Positions 1 through 5,521 are shown, numbered from the stretch's first letter. The stretch: 5,521 nucleotides of DNA from a virus (UHGV-0231424), one strand, 5' to 3'. The notes: generated by a model not told the origin, from the sequence alone. A program made the numbers and translations.

Positions 1-149
1 ACATAAGAACAGATCGATTCGAAGTAGCGATAGACGCGATGGACAAAATCAACCAAAGCACAGCGGACCAGATCGCGAAGAACAAGGGCGAAACCGAAAG
101 TGTGAAAACCTTCGGGACAGAAGGAAAAACCGATCCCGAAAAGAGCTAA
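1..149 (+). CDS. C-terminal part of a 107-aa hypothetical protein that begins at 5347 and wraps around the window junction (circular genome); possible internal scaffolding (VP3-like) protein by position
   Basis: Frame 3 is open from the first base to the TAA at 147..149 (…IRTDRFEVAIDAMDKINQSTADQIAKNKGETESVKTFGTEGKTDPEKS*). The last base of the window (g5521) plus the first two bases (ac) make a GAC codon that joins the ORF starting at 5347 in the same frame. Third-position T usage is low, as in the confident genes. Not in the ORF track because it has no in-window start. Confidence 0.55.
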   Translation, partial: IRTDRFEVAIDAMDKINQSTADQIAKNKGETESVKTFGTEGKTDPEKS

Positions 150-178
150 AGCAGTCGTATAAAGATCTACCAAAACTC

Positions 179-210
179 AAAGAGGGGGGATATTTCCGCC
201 CCCCTCTTTT
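179..210 (+). terminator. Rho-independent-type terminator: perfect 11-bp GC-rich stem (AAAGAGGGGGG / CCCCCCTCTTT), 9-nt loop, followed by a T run
   Basis: Read directly: 179-189 aaagagggggg, loop 190-198 atatttccg, 199-209 cccccctcttt (exact reverse complement), then t210. It lies 30 nt downstream of the stop of the wrapping ORF and upstream of VP2. Confidence 0.6.
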
Positions 211-304
211 AACCCTCGTAAATATATGTGGCACAGAGCGGTAGACATTTATACATATATAACAAGAACTATAGGTATAAATTCTTTTTTAAAAAAGAAC
301 GAAA
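211..304 (+). promoter_or_regulatory. AT-rich non-coding leader upstream of VP2, the only sizeable intergenic region; putative promoter and possibly replication-origin region
   Basis: No ORF with sensible codon usage. Contains TAGACA (242-247, -35-like), TATAAAT (276-282, -10-like, though the spacing to TAGACA is too long for a pair), and an 8-bp inverted repeat atatatgt(222-229)/acatatat(253-260). Assignment of specific promoter elements is not secure. Confidence 0.25.
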
Positions 305-1513
305 ATGAACTTCAAAGAACTACTGAAATTACTCGAAAAAGGAGAGGATCTCATGAGCCCTCTCTCGGGAATTGTAGGCGATGTTTCAGGAATCCTCAAT
401 ACGCTGGGCGTAGGCAGAAGGAGGCAGATAAGACAGCAGAAAGAAATGGCAGAAAACGCAGCCAAAATAAATTACAAATACGGAGAAATGGCGGCGGAGA
501 ATGCATTCGAAAGACAGCAAGTGTTATACAACAGGACCTATCAAGACCAAAGTTACGCCAACCAAGTCGCGCAAATGGATGCAGCGGGATTGTCTCCCGG
601 TCTGATGTATGGCAAAGGAGGTGCCGGAGGCGGAGGAGCCGGTTCGACAACCGGTGCTCCAATGGGTGCAACAGGAGCTACAGGAGCAGGATCAGCAGCC
701 GATCCGAATATGCAACTACAGGCATTGATGTCATTGCGACAAGTACGGATGAGCGAACGAAAGAACGAAGCAGAAATCAACCTGCTCAATACGCAAGCAG
801 AAGCACTCAAAGCAGAAGCGGGCAAAAGCAAAGAAGAAACCACGTCAATAATCGAAAAGAGAATATGGCAGGTAAAACAGGAAATGTTCGAAGGCTGGAA
901 AGGCTTTATCGGCACAGCAAATCAACTATGGGACCAGATGGTAAAATGGCAACCCACGGAAAAAACGACGATCGACGGCAAAGAAATCGAGATACCTAAA
1001 TACTTCGAAATAGAGGACGATAAATTCGGGAAGATCGTATTCGGAGAAAAATCATTCCAGGGCGATATGATGAAAGCCGAAAAACAAATCCTCGAAGGAA
1101 CAGCGGCAATCAAAACTCTGGAGAGCATATATGCAGACGAGAAACTATCGGCAGAAATCAACAAAATAAACGCGGACGCATGCAGCGCAATGGCTCAAGC
1201 AGCTTACTTCTACGCAGCGGGCAAAAATCAAGAAGCAGAAGCAAAAGTGGCCGAAGCAAAAAGAAGGACCGAAGAAGCAACCGCAGATCTGCGAGAACTC
1301 CAATACTGGACCGAAATAGCGAATACAATCCTCAAACTCGCGCAAGTAGTAGGAAATATGGTAATCGGAGGAAAAACAGGAAAAGCGATCAGAGAATACA
1401 CGGAAAGAAGGATGAACGAAACACCCCCCAAGAATTCATCGACAGTAACACAACACTACGATCCGGAGATGAATTTTAAGGGAGTAGATAAGACCGTAAC
1501 GACAAAATGGTAG
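305..1513 (+). CDS. VP2: Microviridae VP2-like minor capsid / DNA pilot protein (402 aa)
   Basis: The N-terminal region carries the pattern I recognise from Microviridae VP2/H-type pilot proteins (…NYKYGEMAAENAFERQQVLYNRTYQDQSYANQVAQMDAAGLSPGLMY…). It is followed by a Gly/Ala/Thr-rich low-complexity linker (611-706) and a long coiled-coil-like, charged C-terminal half. Codon usage is typical for this genome. Alternative start at ATG 353 (MSPLSGIVG…), preceded by a strong Shine-Dalgarno aaaaaGGAGAGG (341-347, 5-nt spacing). Confidence 0.85.
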   Translation: MNFKELLKLLEKGEDLMSPLSGIVGDVSGILNTLGVGRRRQIRQQKEMAENAAKINYKYGEMAAENAFERQQVLYNRTYQDQSYANQVAQMDAAGLSPGLMYGKGGAGGGGAGSTTGAPMGATGATGAGSAADPNMQLQALMSLRQVRMSERKNEAEINLLNTQAEALKAEAGKSKEETTSIIEKRIWQVKQEMFEGWKGFIGTANQLWDQMVKWQPTEKTTIDGKEIEIPKYFEIEDDKFGKIVFGEKSFQGDMMKAEKQILEGTAAIKTLESIYADEKLSAEINKINADACSAMAQAAYFYAAGKNQEAEAKVAEAKRRTEEATADLRELQYWTEIANTILKLAQVVGNMVIGGKTGKAIREYTERRMNETPPKNSSTVTQHYDPEMNFKGVDKTVTTKW

Positions 1514-1551
1514 AAAAATGATTTTAAAGGGGGAAAATTCAATTAAAAGCA

Positions 1552-2463
1552 GTGTGCCTATATCCAAGTACCATAGAGAATCCAAAGTACGCCAAATCGA
1601 ACGAAAACGCTAAAAGAATAAGAGATCGTCGTCTGAGATGGATACAAATTCCATGCGGACACTGCGAAGAATGCAGACGCGCAAAAGCAAATGAATGGAG
1701 AGTAAGATTGATGGAAGAAATAAAATCCAATCCAAAAAATACTATATTCGCCACGCTGACGTTCTCAGAAGAAAGCCTAAAAAGATTAGAATATGACGAA
1801 AACGAACCGAACAAAACACCTCAAAAAGCAATCAGCCTATTCAGAAAACGATGGTGGAAAAAGCATAAAAAACCACTCAAACACTGGCTAATCACAGAAA
1901 TGGGACACGACAATACCAAAAGAATACATCTACACGGCATTATATGGACAGAACTAACAGAGGAACAATTCGAAAAAGAATGGGGGTACGGCTGGGTATT
2001 CTTCGGGTATGAAGTAAACGAAAGAACAATAAACTACATCATAAAATACATAACAAAAAGAGACGAAAGCAACCCTGAATTCAACGGAAAGATATTCACC
2101 TCAAAAAGAATCGGAATAAACTACATAAACAAAAACTCACTCAAAAGGCATAGATATCAGGATAAATTCACAGAAGAAACATACAGAACAAATTCAGGAA
2201 TAAAAACAGCACTACCAGCATACTACAGACAAAAACTATGGACGGATCAGGAACGCGAAGCCCTCCGGATCATAAAGGAGGAGAAACAAGTAAAATACTA
2301 CAACAAAACCCCTATCAAAGTGGAAACAATAGAACAATACAAAGAGTATGTACACGCAGTAAAATACTGGCAATCAATCAAAAAGTATGACGGAAAGAGA
2401 AAAGAAGGAAATATGCAAAGGATATGCAGACCTGATCATAAAGAAGGAAAAATTAATTCGTGA
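1552..2463 (+). CDS. VP4: Microviridae VP4-like rolling-circle replication initiation protein (Rep, HUH endonuclease; 303 aa, GTG start)
   Basis: N-terminal C-L-Y-P then CGHCEEC zinc-finger-like motif. RCR motif 1 FATLTF (1747-1764), motif 2 HLHGIIW (1927-1947), motif 3 with paired catalytic tyrosines YIIKYITK (2035-2058), matching phiX174 A protein YVAKYVNK. Starts with GTG at 1552 (no in-frame ATG upstream; TAA at 1525). The last ~25 codons (2401-2463) have atypically high NNT codon usage; see findings. Confidence 0.88.
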   Translation: MCLYPSTIENPKYAKSNENAKRIRDRRLRWIQIPCGHCEECRRAKANEWRVRLMEEIKSNPKNTIFATLTFSEESLKRLEYDENEPNKTPQKAISLFRKRWWKKHKKPLKHWLITEMGHDNTKRIHLHGIIWTELTEEQFEKEWGYGWVFFGYEVNERTINYIIKYITKRDESNPEFNGKIFTSKRIGINYINKNSLKRHRYQDKFTEETYRTNSGIKTALPAYYRQKLWTDQEREALRIIKEEKQVKYYNKTPIKVETIEQYKEYVHAVKYWQSIKKYDGKRKEGNMQRICRPDHKEGKINS

Positions 2464-2584
2464 AATATGGGAAACGGAATTTGCAATCAGAAAAGTAGAG
2501 AATATATTGACCAGAAACAGGATAATAAATTCGCCAAAGGAAGAGGAGACATCGGAGATAGATCCACTAATCTTACAAAACTAA
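2387..2584 (+). CDS. Candidate overlapping gene (65 aa, charged/helical) spanning the rep 3' end and the start of the next ORF; alternatively a frameshifted segment
   Basis: Frame +2 ORF MTEREKKEICKGYADLIIKKEKLIREIWETEFAIRKVENILTRNRIINSPKEEETSEIDPLILQN. Third-position T about 10% (genome-typical), versus about 28-30% for the annotated frame over the same nucleotides. Positionally analogous to phiX174 gene K, which overlaps the A end and the C start. Confidence 0.3.
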   Translation: MTEREKKEICKGYADLIIKKEKLIREIWETEFAIRKVENILTRNRIINSPKEEETSEIDPLILQN

Positions 2585-2826
2585 TCGGTGCAGAAGCAGT
2601 ATCCAGACGAAACTTCAAATACGAAGGAACATTCTACGTGACAGAAGACGGAGAAACATTCGACAAGGAATACGTAGAAACTCATAAACCGCAAAGAACA
2701 GGCATCAGCTTCTACGAGGTAAGCAACTGGATATACAACGAAAGAAAACAACTGTACGAACCTATTATCAGAAGGATAGTAATGATCAAAAACACCAACA
2801 TTCAATTATCACTGAACTATGAATGA
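2467..2826 (+). CDS. Hypothetical protein (119 aa) immediately downstream of rep
   Basis: ATG 4 nt after the rep stop, in the same frame. The C-terminal ~80 codons (from about 2585) have genome-typical codon usage and protein-like composition (…FKYEGTFYVTEDGETFDKEYVETHKPQRTGISFYEVSNWIYNERKQLYEPIIRRIVMIKNT…). The N-terminal 39 codons look compositionally off-frame. The stop TGA (2824-2826) overlaps the start of the next gene (ATGAATGA). Confidence 0.5.
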   Translation: MGNGICNQKSREYIDQKQDNKFAKGRGDIGDRSTNLTKLIGAEAVSRRNFKYEGTFYVTEDGETFDKEYVETHKPQRTGISFYEVSNWIYNERKQLYEPIIRRIVMIKNTNIQLSLNYE

Positions 2827-2989
2827 AAAAGTAAAGAAAATCGTAAAATGGATCGCGGTAATAGCAGCCGCAATCGGCGCCGCAGCTGCCGTAATCATGG
2901 AGCAAGGATGCTCTCACAAGCACTACCTCAAAGCAAACGGAATCAAAATCGACACAGTCGAAGTATCAACAACAACAAAAATCAAGTAA
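2819..2989 (+). CDS. Small single-pass membrane protein (56 aa): MNEKVKKIVKWIAVIAAAIGAAAAVIMEQGCSHKHYLKANGIKIDTVEVSTTTKIK; candidate lysis/membrane-targeting protein
   Basis: Not in the supplied ORF track (below its apparent ~60-aa cutoff); found by reading frame +2. ATG 2819 overlaps the upstream stop (ATGAATGA); TAA 2987-2989 is followed 1 nt later by the next ATG. Lys-rich N-terminus, then a 17-20 residue hydrophobic Ala/Ile/Val helix. Only 3/56 NNT codons, which is genome-typical. It fills the gap between flanking genes exactly. Confidence 0.55.
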   Translation: MNEKVKKIVKWIAVIAAAIGAAAAVIMEQGCSHKHYLKANGIKIDTVEVSTTTKIK

Positions 2990-2990
2990 C

Positions 2991-3296
2991 ATGGACAAGA
3001 AATTCAGAAATCAGCTACTTGCTGAAAGCGGAAAAAAAGAGAGCGAAATCGAAAGCGTAAACCTCGAAATCGAAGAAAGAGAGCAATCGAAAAACGGCAT
3101 ATTCGTGCTGATCCGCAACAAGAAAAACAAATGGCTGATCACAATGTGCGGCTCGCTCTTGAACGGAAAGGAATTCGACACTAAAGAGGAAGCCGAAGAA
3201 CACATAGCTAAAAAAGAATGGGAAGACATCCTGACCGCAACATCCGTATTCTTCCTGCACGTATACCATGAAATGAAAAACACTCAAACAAAATAA
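2991..3296 (+). CDS. Hypothetical acidic/charged protein (101 aa) immediately upstream of the major capsid gene
   Basis: ATG 1 nt after the preceding stop; its own stop lies 3 nt before the VP1 ATG. Genome-typical codon usage (~7% NNT). Glu/Lys-rich, with a hydrophobic core segment (GIFVLI…WLITMCGSLL). No motif I can assign. Confidence 0.6.
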   Translation: MDKKFRNQLLAESGKKESEIESVNLEIEEREQSKNGIFVLIRNKKNKWLITMCGSLLNGKEFDTKEEAEEHIAKKEWEDILTATSVFFLHVYHEMKNTQTK

Positions 3297-3299
3297 GCC

Positions 3300-5342
3300 A
3301 TGAAAAAAACATTAGGAGGAGACAGAATCCGGAGCGAAAGCAAAATGGAAGTATATCTGCCCAATTTCGGCAGATCGTCACATAACATAGGAAAAATAGT
3401 TCGAACATCACAAGCATGCGGCACAATCGTTCCCTATTGGTGCCAAATAGGTATGGATGGAACGACGTTCTACATCGACATCACGACAAAAGTAAAAACA
3501 ATGCCGACGACCGGACCCGTATTCGGCAGCTTCAAACATCAAATCGACGTATTCGTAATTCCGATCAGACTCTATATAGCAGCGCTGCACAACAACGCTC
3601 TGGGAGTAGGGCTGAACATGAGCAAGGTGCTGCTGCCGCAATTCAACGTATATTCAGGTACTACATCAATTTACGAAAACGACACCAATAGAGGGCAAGT
3701 CAATCCGAGCTCGCTGCTCTCATATCTGGGAATCAAGGGGTTCGGATATTCTAAAGTCAATCCGCACCTTCGCAGCTTTCCTGCGATATTCAATCTGGCG
3801 TACTGGGACATATTCAAAAACTACTACGCCAACAAACAAGAAGAAAACGCATATGTAATCACCGGAATAGACCATATCTGGAAGAGCATCAGCGTAGAAG
3901 ATGGAGTCAAGCAGCTTAGGACATGGACGAGCAACAAGAGTACGACATACAGGATCGCTCCGACAGCTGATAAACCGTTGTACATCAAACTGGAATTCGA
4001 GGAAAACGTCTCACCAGAAGTGGTCAACGAAATCCAGTTCATGACGAATATTCCCGACACAACGCAGAAATTAAACGAGTTGACGAAACTCGGTGACACC
4101 TTCGTATTCGAACGAACAGACCCGGATGCATTGGGAATTAGGGAACCAAGCAACCTGAGAAAAGCAACTAAGGTCTTCGCATACAAAGTCAAAAAGACTA
4201 TCGAGATCGCATACAACATGAATACGGTCGGAGAGCATCCGATAACAATGCCGGACAACCAGAAGATCAAACTAACACAATTTCCATTAAAAAACATCGA
4301 CGATGAACGGAGTGCAATCTTAGCAGCACCCAGCACCTCGGCATATACGGTAAGTAATGATAAAATGCCATACGCAGCTGCACTCAAAACTCTGGAGCTA
4401 CCGAATTACGACCGCACAAAAACATACCGTAGCTCAAATTCATGGTACTCACAAGCGGGGTTAGCAGTAAAAACATACCTTAGCGACAGGTTCAACAACT
4501 GGCTGAACACCGAGTGGATCGACGGGACGACCGGAGGGATCAACGCGATCACGGCGGTAGATGTGAGCGATGGAAAACTTACGATGGATGCTCTGATCCT
4601 TCAAAAGAAGATTTTCAACATGCTGAACCGCGTAGCCATTACAGACGGCACCTATCAGGCATGGAGAGAAGCGACATACGGGATCAGAAGCACGACGCTG
4701 CCTGAATCTCCTATCTTCTGCGGCGGAATGCAGAGCGAAATCGCATTCGACGAAATCGTATCGAACTCAGCGACAGATGAAGAGCCATTAGGAACACTTG
4801 CCGGCCGAGGAGTCGCAACCATGTACAAATCCGGAAGGGGCTTGAAAATCAAATGCACGGAACCAAGCATGATCATGGCCTTAGGATCGATCACACCTCG
4901 AATCGATTACAGCCAAGGCAACAAATGGTGGACAAGACTGCAAAATATGGATGACTTCCATAAGCCGACATTGGACGCAATCGGATTTCAAGAACTGATA
5001 GCGGAAGAAGCAGCTGCATGGAGTACAGAAACCACCGATGACCACCGACAAACGTACCAATCATTGGGAAAACAACCGTCATGGATCGAATATACGACAG
5101 ACGTAAACGAAACGTACGGCGAATTTGCAGCCGGAATGCCTTTGGCGTTCATGTGTCTGAACAGGGTGTACGAGGAAAACAAAGACGGCTCGATCAAAAA
5201 CGCATCGACATACATCGATCCTACGATATACAACAACATATTCGCAGAGTCGAGATTAAGTTCACAGAACTTCTGGGTACAAGTAGCGTTCGACGTAACA
5301 GCACGTCGAGTAATGTCAGCAAAACAAATTCCAAATCTGTAA
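3300..5342 (+). CDS. VP1: Microviridae major capsid protein VP1 / F-like (680 aa)
   Basis: N-terminal signature SSHNIGKIVRTSQACGTIVPYWCQIGMDGTTFYID…VFVIPIRLY corresponds to the conserved LSHxxxxT…G.LVP…PGDTF…FF.P.RL block of Microviridae F/VP1 proteins. Long, clean ORF with consistent codon usage. Alternative start at ATG 3345 (MEVYLPNF…; GGAG at 3331-3334, 10-nt spacing) would give an N-terminal length more like homologues. Confidence 0.9.
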   Translation: MKKTLGGDRIRSESKMEVYLPNFGRSSHNIGKIVRTSQACGTIVPYWCQIGMDGTTFYIDITTKVKTMPTTGPVFGSFKHQIDVFVIPIRLYIAALHNNALGVGLNMSKVLLPQFNVYSGTTSIYENDTNRGQVNPSSLLSYLGIKGFGYSKVNPHLRSFPAIFNLAYWDIFKNYYANKQEENAYVITGIDHIWKSISVEDGVKQLRTWTSNKSTTYRIAPTADKPLYIKLEFEENVSPEVVNEIQFMTNIPDTTQKLNELTKLGDTFVFERTDPDALGIREPSNLRKATKVFAYKVKKTIEIAYNMNTVGEHPITMPDNQKIKLTQFPLKNIDDERSAILAAPSTSAYTVSNDKMPYAAALKTLELPNYDRTKTYRSSNSWYSQAGLAVKTYLSDRFNNWLNTEWIDGTTGGINAITAVDVSDGKLTMDALILQKKIFNMLNRVAITDGTYQAWREATYGIRSTTLPESPIFCGGMQSEIAFDEIVSNSATDEEPLGTLAGRGVATMYKSGRGLKIKCTEPSMIMALGSITPRIDYSQGNKWWTRLQNMDDFHKPTLDAIGFQELIAEEAAAWSTETTDDHRQTYQSLGKQPSWIEYTTDVNETYGEFAAGMPLAFMCLNRVYEENKDGSIKNASTYIDPTIYNNIFAESRLSSQNFWVQVAFDVTARRVMSAKQIPNL

Positions 5343-5346
5343 TACT

Positions 5347-5521
5347 ATGAAAACAGCAAAAAATAGAAAAGGATGCATCGATAATCCAGACCTTACCTAC
5401 GAGGCAGAACCGAGGGAAGTGAAACTAAGAAAGATAATCAGCGGAGAAGCCAGTAACATGGAGGATGGAGTATTCCCGACAATCTACACGGAAAAAAAAG
5501 ATGGAGTGCGACCCGAATACG
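5347..5521 (+). CDS. N-terminal part (58 aa + split codon) of the 107-aa hypothetical protein that continues at position 1
   Basis: ATG 5347 lies 4 nt after the VP1 stop. MKTAKNRKGCIDNPDLTYEAEPREVKLRKIISGEASNMEDGVFPTIYTEKKDGVRPEY, with no stop before the window end. It joins frame-exactly to the ORF at 1..149. Codon usage is genome-typical. Confidence 0.55.
   Translation, partial: MKTAKNRKGCIDNPDLTYEAEPREVKLRKIISGEASNMEDGVFPTIYTEKKDGVRPEY

Follow-up and report, generated by a model that had tools for sequence, protein, structure and literature searches.

A 5,521-nucleotide virus sequence is very probably one turn of a circular Microviridae genome, opened inside a conserved 107-amino-acid gene

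The virus sequence UHGV-0231424, called the window throughout, is a stretch of 5,521 nucleotides (nt), given here on its + strand, and its two ends raise a question. An open reading frame (ORF) that starts at ATG 5347 is still open at the last base, and a second frame is already open at the first. The ends could belong to two genes cut off at the edges of a longer molecule, or they could be the halves of one gene in a circle that was opened there. A preliminary description, made from the sequence alone, took the window for a complete circular microvirus genome, and this view is upheld here by identical contigs that close on themselves and by 22 collinear circular relatives. With a probability of about 0.97, the window corresponds to exactly one turn of the circular genome of an uncultivated virus in the family Microviridae, opened in the middle of codon 59 of a gene for a protein of 107 amino acids (aa). 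The break point has no biological meaning and is merely where the sequence was opened. The two parts of the gene are placed as follows.

5347..5521, + strand: 5' part of the 107-aa gene, 175 nt, codons 1–58 with the first base of codon 59; still open at the window's last base
1..149, + strand: 3' part of the 107-aa gene, the last two bases of the codon for D59, codons 60–107 and the stop codon TAA at 147–149

When the two ends are joined, G5521 with A1 and C2 forms the codon GAC (Asp59), and the frame continues through 3..146, so that the gene has a total of 324 nt, corresponding to 107 aa and a stop codon. The continuous ORF from ATG 5347 to TAA 147–149 by way of GAC thus reads as previously described, and the nearest in-frame stop upstream of ATG 5347 is the TAA at 5311.

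The exact joined protein (P0418) is on public record as a single called gene, and its cluster at 90% identity has 91 members. Contigs carrying this protein led to two public assemblies of the same virus, which are 100% identical to the window, otherwise unannotated and opened elsewhere. The first (ENA ERZ27266801, contig k115_143325, 5636 nt; L090) has an exact end overlap of 115 nt, and the second (ENA ERZ28659311, scaffold_6198, 5576 nt; L091) has one of 55 nt. Because these overlaps close contigs that each match the window with 0 mismatches across 5521 nt, the unit is 5521 nt. The 5521/1 join is internal to both (2596/2597 in L090 and 76/77 in L091) and a 120-mer spanning it is found inside each, so that, in these assembled contigs, no additional sequence lies between positions 5521 and 1. 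The window itself holds no terminal direct repeat of at least 5 nt, again as first described; ungapped comparison of the two ends gives no identity above chance, and a repeat search of the window returned short chance-level repeats only, with no terminal repeat. AT skew and GC content are alike on either side of the join (0.376 for 5001–5500 vs. 0.380 for 1–500).

Related viruses close in the same manner. Many contigs in Logan and IMG/VR are close relatives, dozens of them 82–97% identical to the window with the same genes and length, and the NCBI third-party annotation protein DAG62870.1 ("Microviridae sp.") is among the records of the same virus and its close relatives. Exact end overlaps of 25–127 nt, their length varying by contig, were found in 22 related contigs and give units of 5522–5535 nt. 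In a whole-genome alignment these 22 units and the window are collinear at 82–94% nucleotide identity, and the differences in length come from insertions or deletions of 1–6 nt only, none of which falls at 5521/1. The bases at 5521 and 1 of the window are neighbors in L017, L033 and L089, three of the related contigs. Moreover, a 600-nt segment centered on the join matches three Logan contigs from other runs at 96–98% with at most one single-base gap, and about 35 IMG/VR contigs at 85–88%. An exact 39-nt junction pattern had 0 matches in IMG/VR; no relative in that collection exceeds about 88% identity around the junction, so that this result is uninformative.

The gene that crosses the join has been conserved as a whole. 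A homologue search found 2050 clusters, of which the top 120 are almost all 107 aa long and 91–99% identical at 100% coverage; an exhaustive search gave 834 clusters at 50% identity, mostly of 95–120 aa and matching across residue 59, and more than 5600 clusters at 90% identity. The homologue is encoded in one piece in 109 GenBank microvirus records, mostly directly after VP1. Residue D59 lies within the invariant block Y58-D-I-R-T-D-R-F-E66 (YDIRTDRFE), the most conserved motif of the family, which is near-invariant in sets of 80 and 110 diverse sequences, and homologues only 43–45% identical, from published circular genomes, align without a gap across D59. This settles in the affirmative the point, raised in the preliminary description, of whether homologues run through the join. 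The gene is uninterrupted in both identical contigs and in all relatives, and intact at its full 107 aa in 21 of the 22. Its ratio of nonsynonymous to synonymous polymorphism (pN/pS), computed like all such values below across 23 genomes (the 22 relatives and the window), is 0.13 in the 5' half and 0.19 in the 3' half, compared with 1.1–1.5 in the two other frames. What crosses the join is one conserved gene under purifying selection. The two terminal ORF fragments should be annotated as one gene, and the window can be treated as a complete genome of exact length.

A gene split by the coordinate origin is routine in Microviridae, since the circular reference record of phiX174 (J02482) is likewise opened inside genes, with A, A* and the internal scaffolding gene B running across its start. 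The finding is thus correct but ordinary, as the point at which a circular microvirus genome is opened is commonly arbitrary, and its main value is one of book-keeping: this is a common microvirus of the expected architecture, the same genome of which was already present, unannotated, in public assemblies.

Other forms of the molecule have to be weighed against one turn of a circle. If the window were a piece of a longer phage genome or of a chromosomal prophage, its in-frame ends would be a coincidence or a trimming artifact. Some microviruses (Alpavirinae and some gokushoviruses) do integrate as prophages (PMC3091885; PMC7062461), and one related contig is 11.6 kb long. However, this contig (IMGVR_UViG_3300007105_000184, 11,646 nt; L017) contains one complete unit, contiguous over the junction, followed by 6.1 kb (5543–11646) in which neither blastn nor tblastn gave a match to the window or its proteins, and it is probably a chimeric assembly. 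No longer contig occurs among about 240 listed homologue clusters, no ORF of the window matched integrase families in Pfam or PHROGs, and the identical contigs and the 22 relatives close at 5521 nt and 5522–5535 nt, respectively. A scan of the genomes of 185,579 species with VP1 patterns, which reaches close relatives only, found neither an integrated copy nor a link to Bacteroidetes, but only a free 5.7-kb contig. A larger molecule is therefore already contradicted and is regarded as extremely improbable.

A linear genome with a terminal direct repeat, or a tandem concatemer of which the window would be the repeat unit, could also be reported as circular by assemblers. The end overlaps differ in length (30, 54, 55, 77, 78, 99, 115 and 127 nt) and lie at different genome positions, a pattern that overlaps left by the assembly of a circle would show and a fixed biological repeat would not. 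The gene content of Microviridae, together with a rolling-circle initiator bearing HUH and Y-x3-Y motifs, also speaks against these forms, as genomes of this family are circular single-stranded DNA (ssDNA). A linear or concatemeric genome is thus held to be very improbable. Some points nevertheless weigh against the reading of the window as one turn of a circle. The evidence for circularity consists of assembly end overlaps, which by themselves are equally compatible with a tandem array or with a linear genome that has redundant ends, since a tandem repeat or concatemer would yield the same overlaps. The two identical contigs may share one sample, so that, for all their different assemblies and break points, they are perhaps not independent material. 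Finally, the ssDNA nature of the genome, its packaged strand, its origin and its promoter are inferred.

This free contig is a unit-length relative that stands as a separate scaffold (NZ_JACWEU010000076.1, 1–5673; L089) in the draft assembly of an Acinetobacter lwoffii isolate. Its VP1 is 84% identical to that of the window and its end overlap is imperfect; its presence there is probably due to contamination rather than to a host link.

Which genes, then, does the circle carry? The window has 46 ORFs of at least 40 aa, and the long ones are all on the + strand, as are the conserved ones. The eight ORFs named in the preliminary description are all found on this strand at the places given for them. 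Three of them encode the core proteins.

305..1513, + strand: VP2, H-like DNA pilot protein, 402 aa (PHROG profile matches)
1552..2463, + strand: VP4, A-like HUH rolling-circle replication initiator, 303 aa, GTG start (PF23343, phrog_942)
3300..5342, + strand: VP1, F-like major capsid protein, 680 aa (PF02305, phrog_514, PDB 8des)

Profile matches bear out the earlier naming of all three. VP1 matches PF02305 (Phage_F) with E = 2e-11, above the curated cut-off, phrog_514 with 7e-41 and PDB 8des ("Major capsid protein") with 2e-7, and its pN/pS is 0.19. VP2 has no Pfam match and is recognized by phrog_8693 and seven further "pilot protein" PHROGs (DNA ejection), the best with E = 7e-9; all 22 relatives keep its full 402 aa, and its pN/pS is 0.13. 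VP4 matches PF23343 (7e-12) and phrog_942 (2e-30), and carries the motifs FATLTF (66–71), HLHGII (126–131) and YIIKY (162–166), the last with two catalytic tyrosines, Y162-x3-Y166. An F/VP1 capsid protein, an HUH initiator VP4, a VP2 pilot protein and a small one-strand circular genome are features of Microviridae, the genomes of which are about 4.4–6.5 kb with all genes on one strand.

The circle, with all genes on one strand, runs in the order VP2, VP4, the 65-, 119-, 56- and 101-aa ORFs, VP1 and the 107-aa gene, followed by a 155-nt non-coding region. In Microviridae the single gene-bearing strand is the packaged strand. The genome would be ssDNA and would replicate by a rolling circle after a nick by VP4, as suggested by family membership and by the HUH and Y-x3-Y motifs, and the gene set is consistent with ssDNA in an icosahedral T=1 virion.

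In a whole-window Megablast against GenBank phages a single 46-nt match was obtained, to a record other than the annotated relatives, which were found by tblastn against the same set. Among annotated genomes, those closest to the window are the circular ones of bajarodmic virus 724 (PQ006946.1, 5528 nt) and Microviridae sp. 7879-1612 (MG945452.1, 5728 nt), which come from rodent and civet feces; neither has nucleotide-level similarity to the window. Both have the same order, namely VP1, a hypothetical protein of 106–109 aa, a gap of about 180 nt, VP2, VP4 and small ORFs, so that the gene order set out in the preliminary description (VP1-107aa-VP2-VP4-small ORFs) recurs in these references. Their VP1 is 56% and 55% identical to that of the window, respectively, their VP4 46–50% and their counterpart of the 107-aa protein 43–45%, with YDIRTDRFE identical. 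They share the 101-aa ORF upstream of VP1 and have no detectable counterpart of the 65-, 119- and 56-aa ORFs.

Among the described groups of microviruses, the closest fit is to published accounts of Alpavirinae. The order VP1-VP2-VP4 is general in most microviruses (PMC9239249), and the order VP1-VP4-VP2 of Pichovirinae (PMC3394797) differs from the VP1-(107 aa)-VP2-VP4 of the window. In Alpavirinae only VP1, VP2 and VP4 are recognizable and a conserved unassigned ORF directly follows VP1 (PMC3394797; PMC3091885). The gene content and order of the window fit the description of this group (the BMV1–7 prophages and gut genomes; "Family 5" of Kirchberger et al. 2022, PMC9239249), the genomes of which are, like the window, larger than those of gokushoviruses; this likeness is by published description, and NCBI taxonomy lists no taxon for the group. 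Gokushovirinae (Chp2, phiMH2K, phiEC6098) share with the window the F-type capsid, for which 8des is the solved structure nearest by sequence, the VP2 pilot and the VP4 initiator, as well as the absence of a phiX174-type spike and external scaffold. However, their genomes are about 4.5 kb, which makes the window about 1 kb longer, and no ORF of the window matches their VP3 (PF09675, Chlamy_scaf) or any further microvirus protein family. Their C-like VP5 was likewise not recognized, none of the small ORFs of the window matching any Pfam or PHROG family. In Chp2 and phiMH2K, moreover, VP3 comes after VP2, not after VP1. phiX174 belongs to Bullavirinae, with D, G, J, E, K and C genes and a B protein without similarity to the 107-aa protein; no ORF of the window matches the external scaffolding protein D or the major spike protein G of this group in Pfam or PHROGs.

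Of wider interest is only the family of the 107-aa protein itself, which is conserved, missing from the standard domain libraries and presumed, by analogy, to have a scaffolding role. Its core, (Y/F)TERKDGV-x-P-x-YDIRTDRFEIA, is near-invariant; conservation is concentrated in the middle (residues ~17–75), and the C-terminal tail is variable and charged. The lineage has been recovered mostly from fecal and gut samples. No source gives the family a functional name, and it is absent from Pfam, PHROGs and PDB sequences: the 107-aa protein and 80 diverse relatives had no consistent Pfam or PHROGs family, with isolated weak single-member matches only, and a profile search of PDB sequences found nothing.

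What could such a protein do? A microvirus of the single-scaffold type is expected to need a scaffolding protein, and no other ORF of the window matches a scaffolding family in Pfam or PHROGs. The place of the gene directly after VP1 and before a terminator-like hairpin is constant across genomes with VP1 about 46–56% identical. In prophages of Bacteroidetes microviruses, the conserved ORF after VP1 was predicted to encode a VP3-like internal scaffolding protein (Krupovic and Forterre, PMC3091885), and this prediction was repeated for the ORF following VP1 (Roux et al., PMC3394797). By analogy, the 107-aa protein may be the internal scaffolding counterpart in capsid assembly, an assignment whose only basis is the position after VP1 and which is given slightly under an even chance. 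Several results weigh against it. Comparison with hhalign gave a probability of 0.2% for the family against gokushovirus VP3 (29 sequences) and of 0.6% against phiX174 B, and the AlphaFold2 model of the 107-aa protein, built from a 110-sequence alignment, is poor, with a predicted local distance difference test (pLDDT) of 63 and a predicted template modeling score (pTM) of 0.26; the scaffolding role is without sequence support.

The protein might instead be another small virion or regulatory protein, for example a DNA-binding protein, a packaging factor or a minor structural protein, and the chances of this are judged about even. The lack of detectable homology to VP3 or B agrees with such a function, as does the layout of a conserved middle and a variable charged C-terminus, unlike that of phiX174 B, in which the C-terminus is the coat-binding part. 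The low-confidence model points in the same direction, being mostly extended with helices at 23–32 and, the one long helix, at 60–93. The constant place after VP1, the lack of any other scaffold candidate and the expected need for one scaffold, set out above, argue for scaffolding instead. A more tentative suggestion, clearly short of even odds, is that in this widespread lineage the family arose independently as a third type of internal scaffold, or that it has some other essential role in assembly. Within the family, one homologue of 161 aa (P0271) scores 223 bits against the family profile vs. about 145 for the next-best members, an excess that suggests a duplicated core domain.

With this gene set, 96% of the circle is coding. 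Non-coding sequence is found in the following places and in three further gaps of 1–4 nt.

150..304, + strand: main non-coding region, 155 nt, between the 107-aa gene and VP2, with a hairpin and an AT-rich block
179..209, + strand: hairpin AAAGAGGGGGG / ATATTTCCG / CCCCCCTCTTT, with an 11-bp G+C-rich stem, a 9-nt loop and a T-rich 3' side
1514–1551: second gap, 38 nt, between VP2 and VP4

The hairpin is probably a transcription terminator, to judge from its form and conservation. The DNA fold of this region has a z score of −4.0, and the stem is near-invariant in the 22 close relatives (single-base changes in 4), with a variable loop. In distant relatives, G+C-rich hairpins of unrelated sequence stand 20–45 nt after the homologous gene, many of them followed by T runs, and such conservation of place without conservation of sequence is in keeping with a transcription terminator. 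A terminator scan of the window stayed at chance level and missed the hairpin at 179–209, because the scanner has a loop limit of 8 nt and the loop is of 9 nt. The AT-rich block at about 238–268 (GCGGTAGAC.TTTATACATATATAACAAGAA) is invariant in 22 relatives that differ by 6–18% overall, and it could, as a matter of speculation, be a promoter of another type or a signal for replication or its origin. A sigma-70 promoter scan was at chance level in the window and had no match in the 150–304 gap, and Rfam gave no match. A single long transcript would start in the 150–304 region and end at the hairpin. Of the one intergenic terminator-promoter region proposed earlier, the hairpin is thus retained; there are two gaps (155 and 38 nt) rather than one, and the promoter was not recovered by the sigma-70 scan.

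Between VP4 and VP1 lie four small ORFs.

2387..2584, + strand: 65-aa ORF, overlapped by the end of VP4 on its 5' side and by the beginning of the 119-aa ORF on its 3' side
2467..2826, + strand: 119-aa ORF, lineage-specific and weakly constrained, open in all relatives
2819..2989, + strand: 56-aa ORF, with a hydrophobic segment at residues ~8–27, then Cys31
2991..3296, + strand: 101-aa ORF, directly upstream of VP1, pN/pS 0.32

None of these ORFs, including that of 101 aa, matches any Pfam or PHROG family. The 101-aa ORF has tblastn matches in PQ006946, MG945452 and MG945511, in which VP1 is only 50–56% identical to that of the window; the other three ORFs have no detectable homologue in genomes at this level of VP1 identity and are lineage-specific. 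The 65-aa ORF, not called as a gene in public contigs, had been placed in brackets in the preliminary description. It does exist: its ATG is conserved and its frame is open for 61–65 codons in 22 of 22 relatives, and where it overlaps VP4 the pN/pS is 0.19 in its own frame vs. 0.80 in the VP4 frame, so that it is probably a real gene.

The 56-aa ORF is intact in all relatives and among the most conserved genes, its pN/pS of 0.13 being equal to that of VP2 and VP4; its product is 96% identical in amino acids to the copy in L017, the genome of which is only 83% identical in nucleotides. The transmembrane segment reported earlier is present as one strongly hydrophobic stretch of 20 residues after a lysine-rich N-terminus (maximum Kyte-Doolittle 19-residue mean 2.33). 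From these features the product may be a small membrane, signal-anchored or lipoprotein-like protein, such as a lysis or exclusion factor. The part of the 119-aa ORF that does not overlap the 65-aa ORF has a pN/pS of 0.45 vs. 0.88 in the control frame, and its N-terminal 39 codons, which do overlap it, look weakly constrained or not constrained. At position 2816 the window and one relative (L001) are without one base that is present in all 21 IMG/VR relatives; as a result, the last codons of the 119-aa ORF are shifted and its stop codon falls within the beginning of the 56-aa ORF.

Gene calls in public records place the starts of both VP1 and VP4 further downstream. For VP1, the ENA calls use a later ATG (665 aa). 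Every one of the 22 relatives keeps ATG 3300, and alignment with the PQ006946 protein starts at residue 1, which makes 680 aa the better call. For VP4, public calls begin at an internal ATG (250 aa) and so lose 53 conserved residues, including a C-x2-C-x2-C cluster (CGHCEEC, residues 35–41). The profile and tblastn matches to VP4 start at residue 1, codons 1–53 are under purifying selection (pN/pS 0.20), and the relatives divide evenly between GTG (11) and ATG (11) as its start codon. At its other end, VP4 stops 15–18 codons earlier in 16 of the 22 relatives; the VP4 of the window carries that C-terminal extension, and the last 25 codons of its frame evolve almost neutrally. VP4 and the 119-aa ORF share a reading frame, with only TGA 2461–2463 and one codon (AAT) between them. 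Readthrough from VP4 into the 119-aa ORF was considered and dropped in view of the earlier ends and the near-neutral last codons. In two relatives a sense codon (CGA or AGA) takes the place of this TGA, but these carry stops further upstream.

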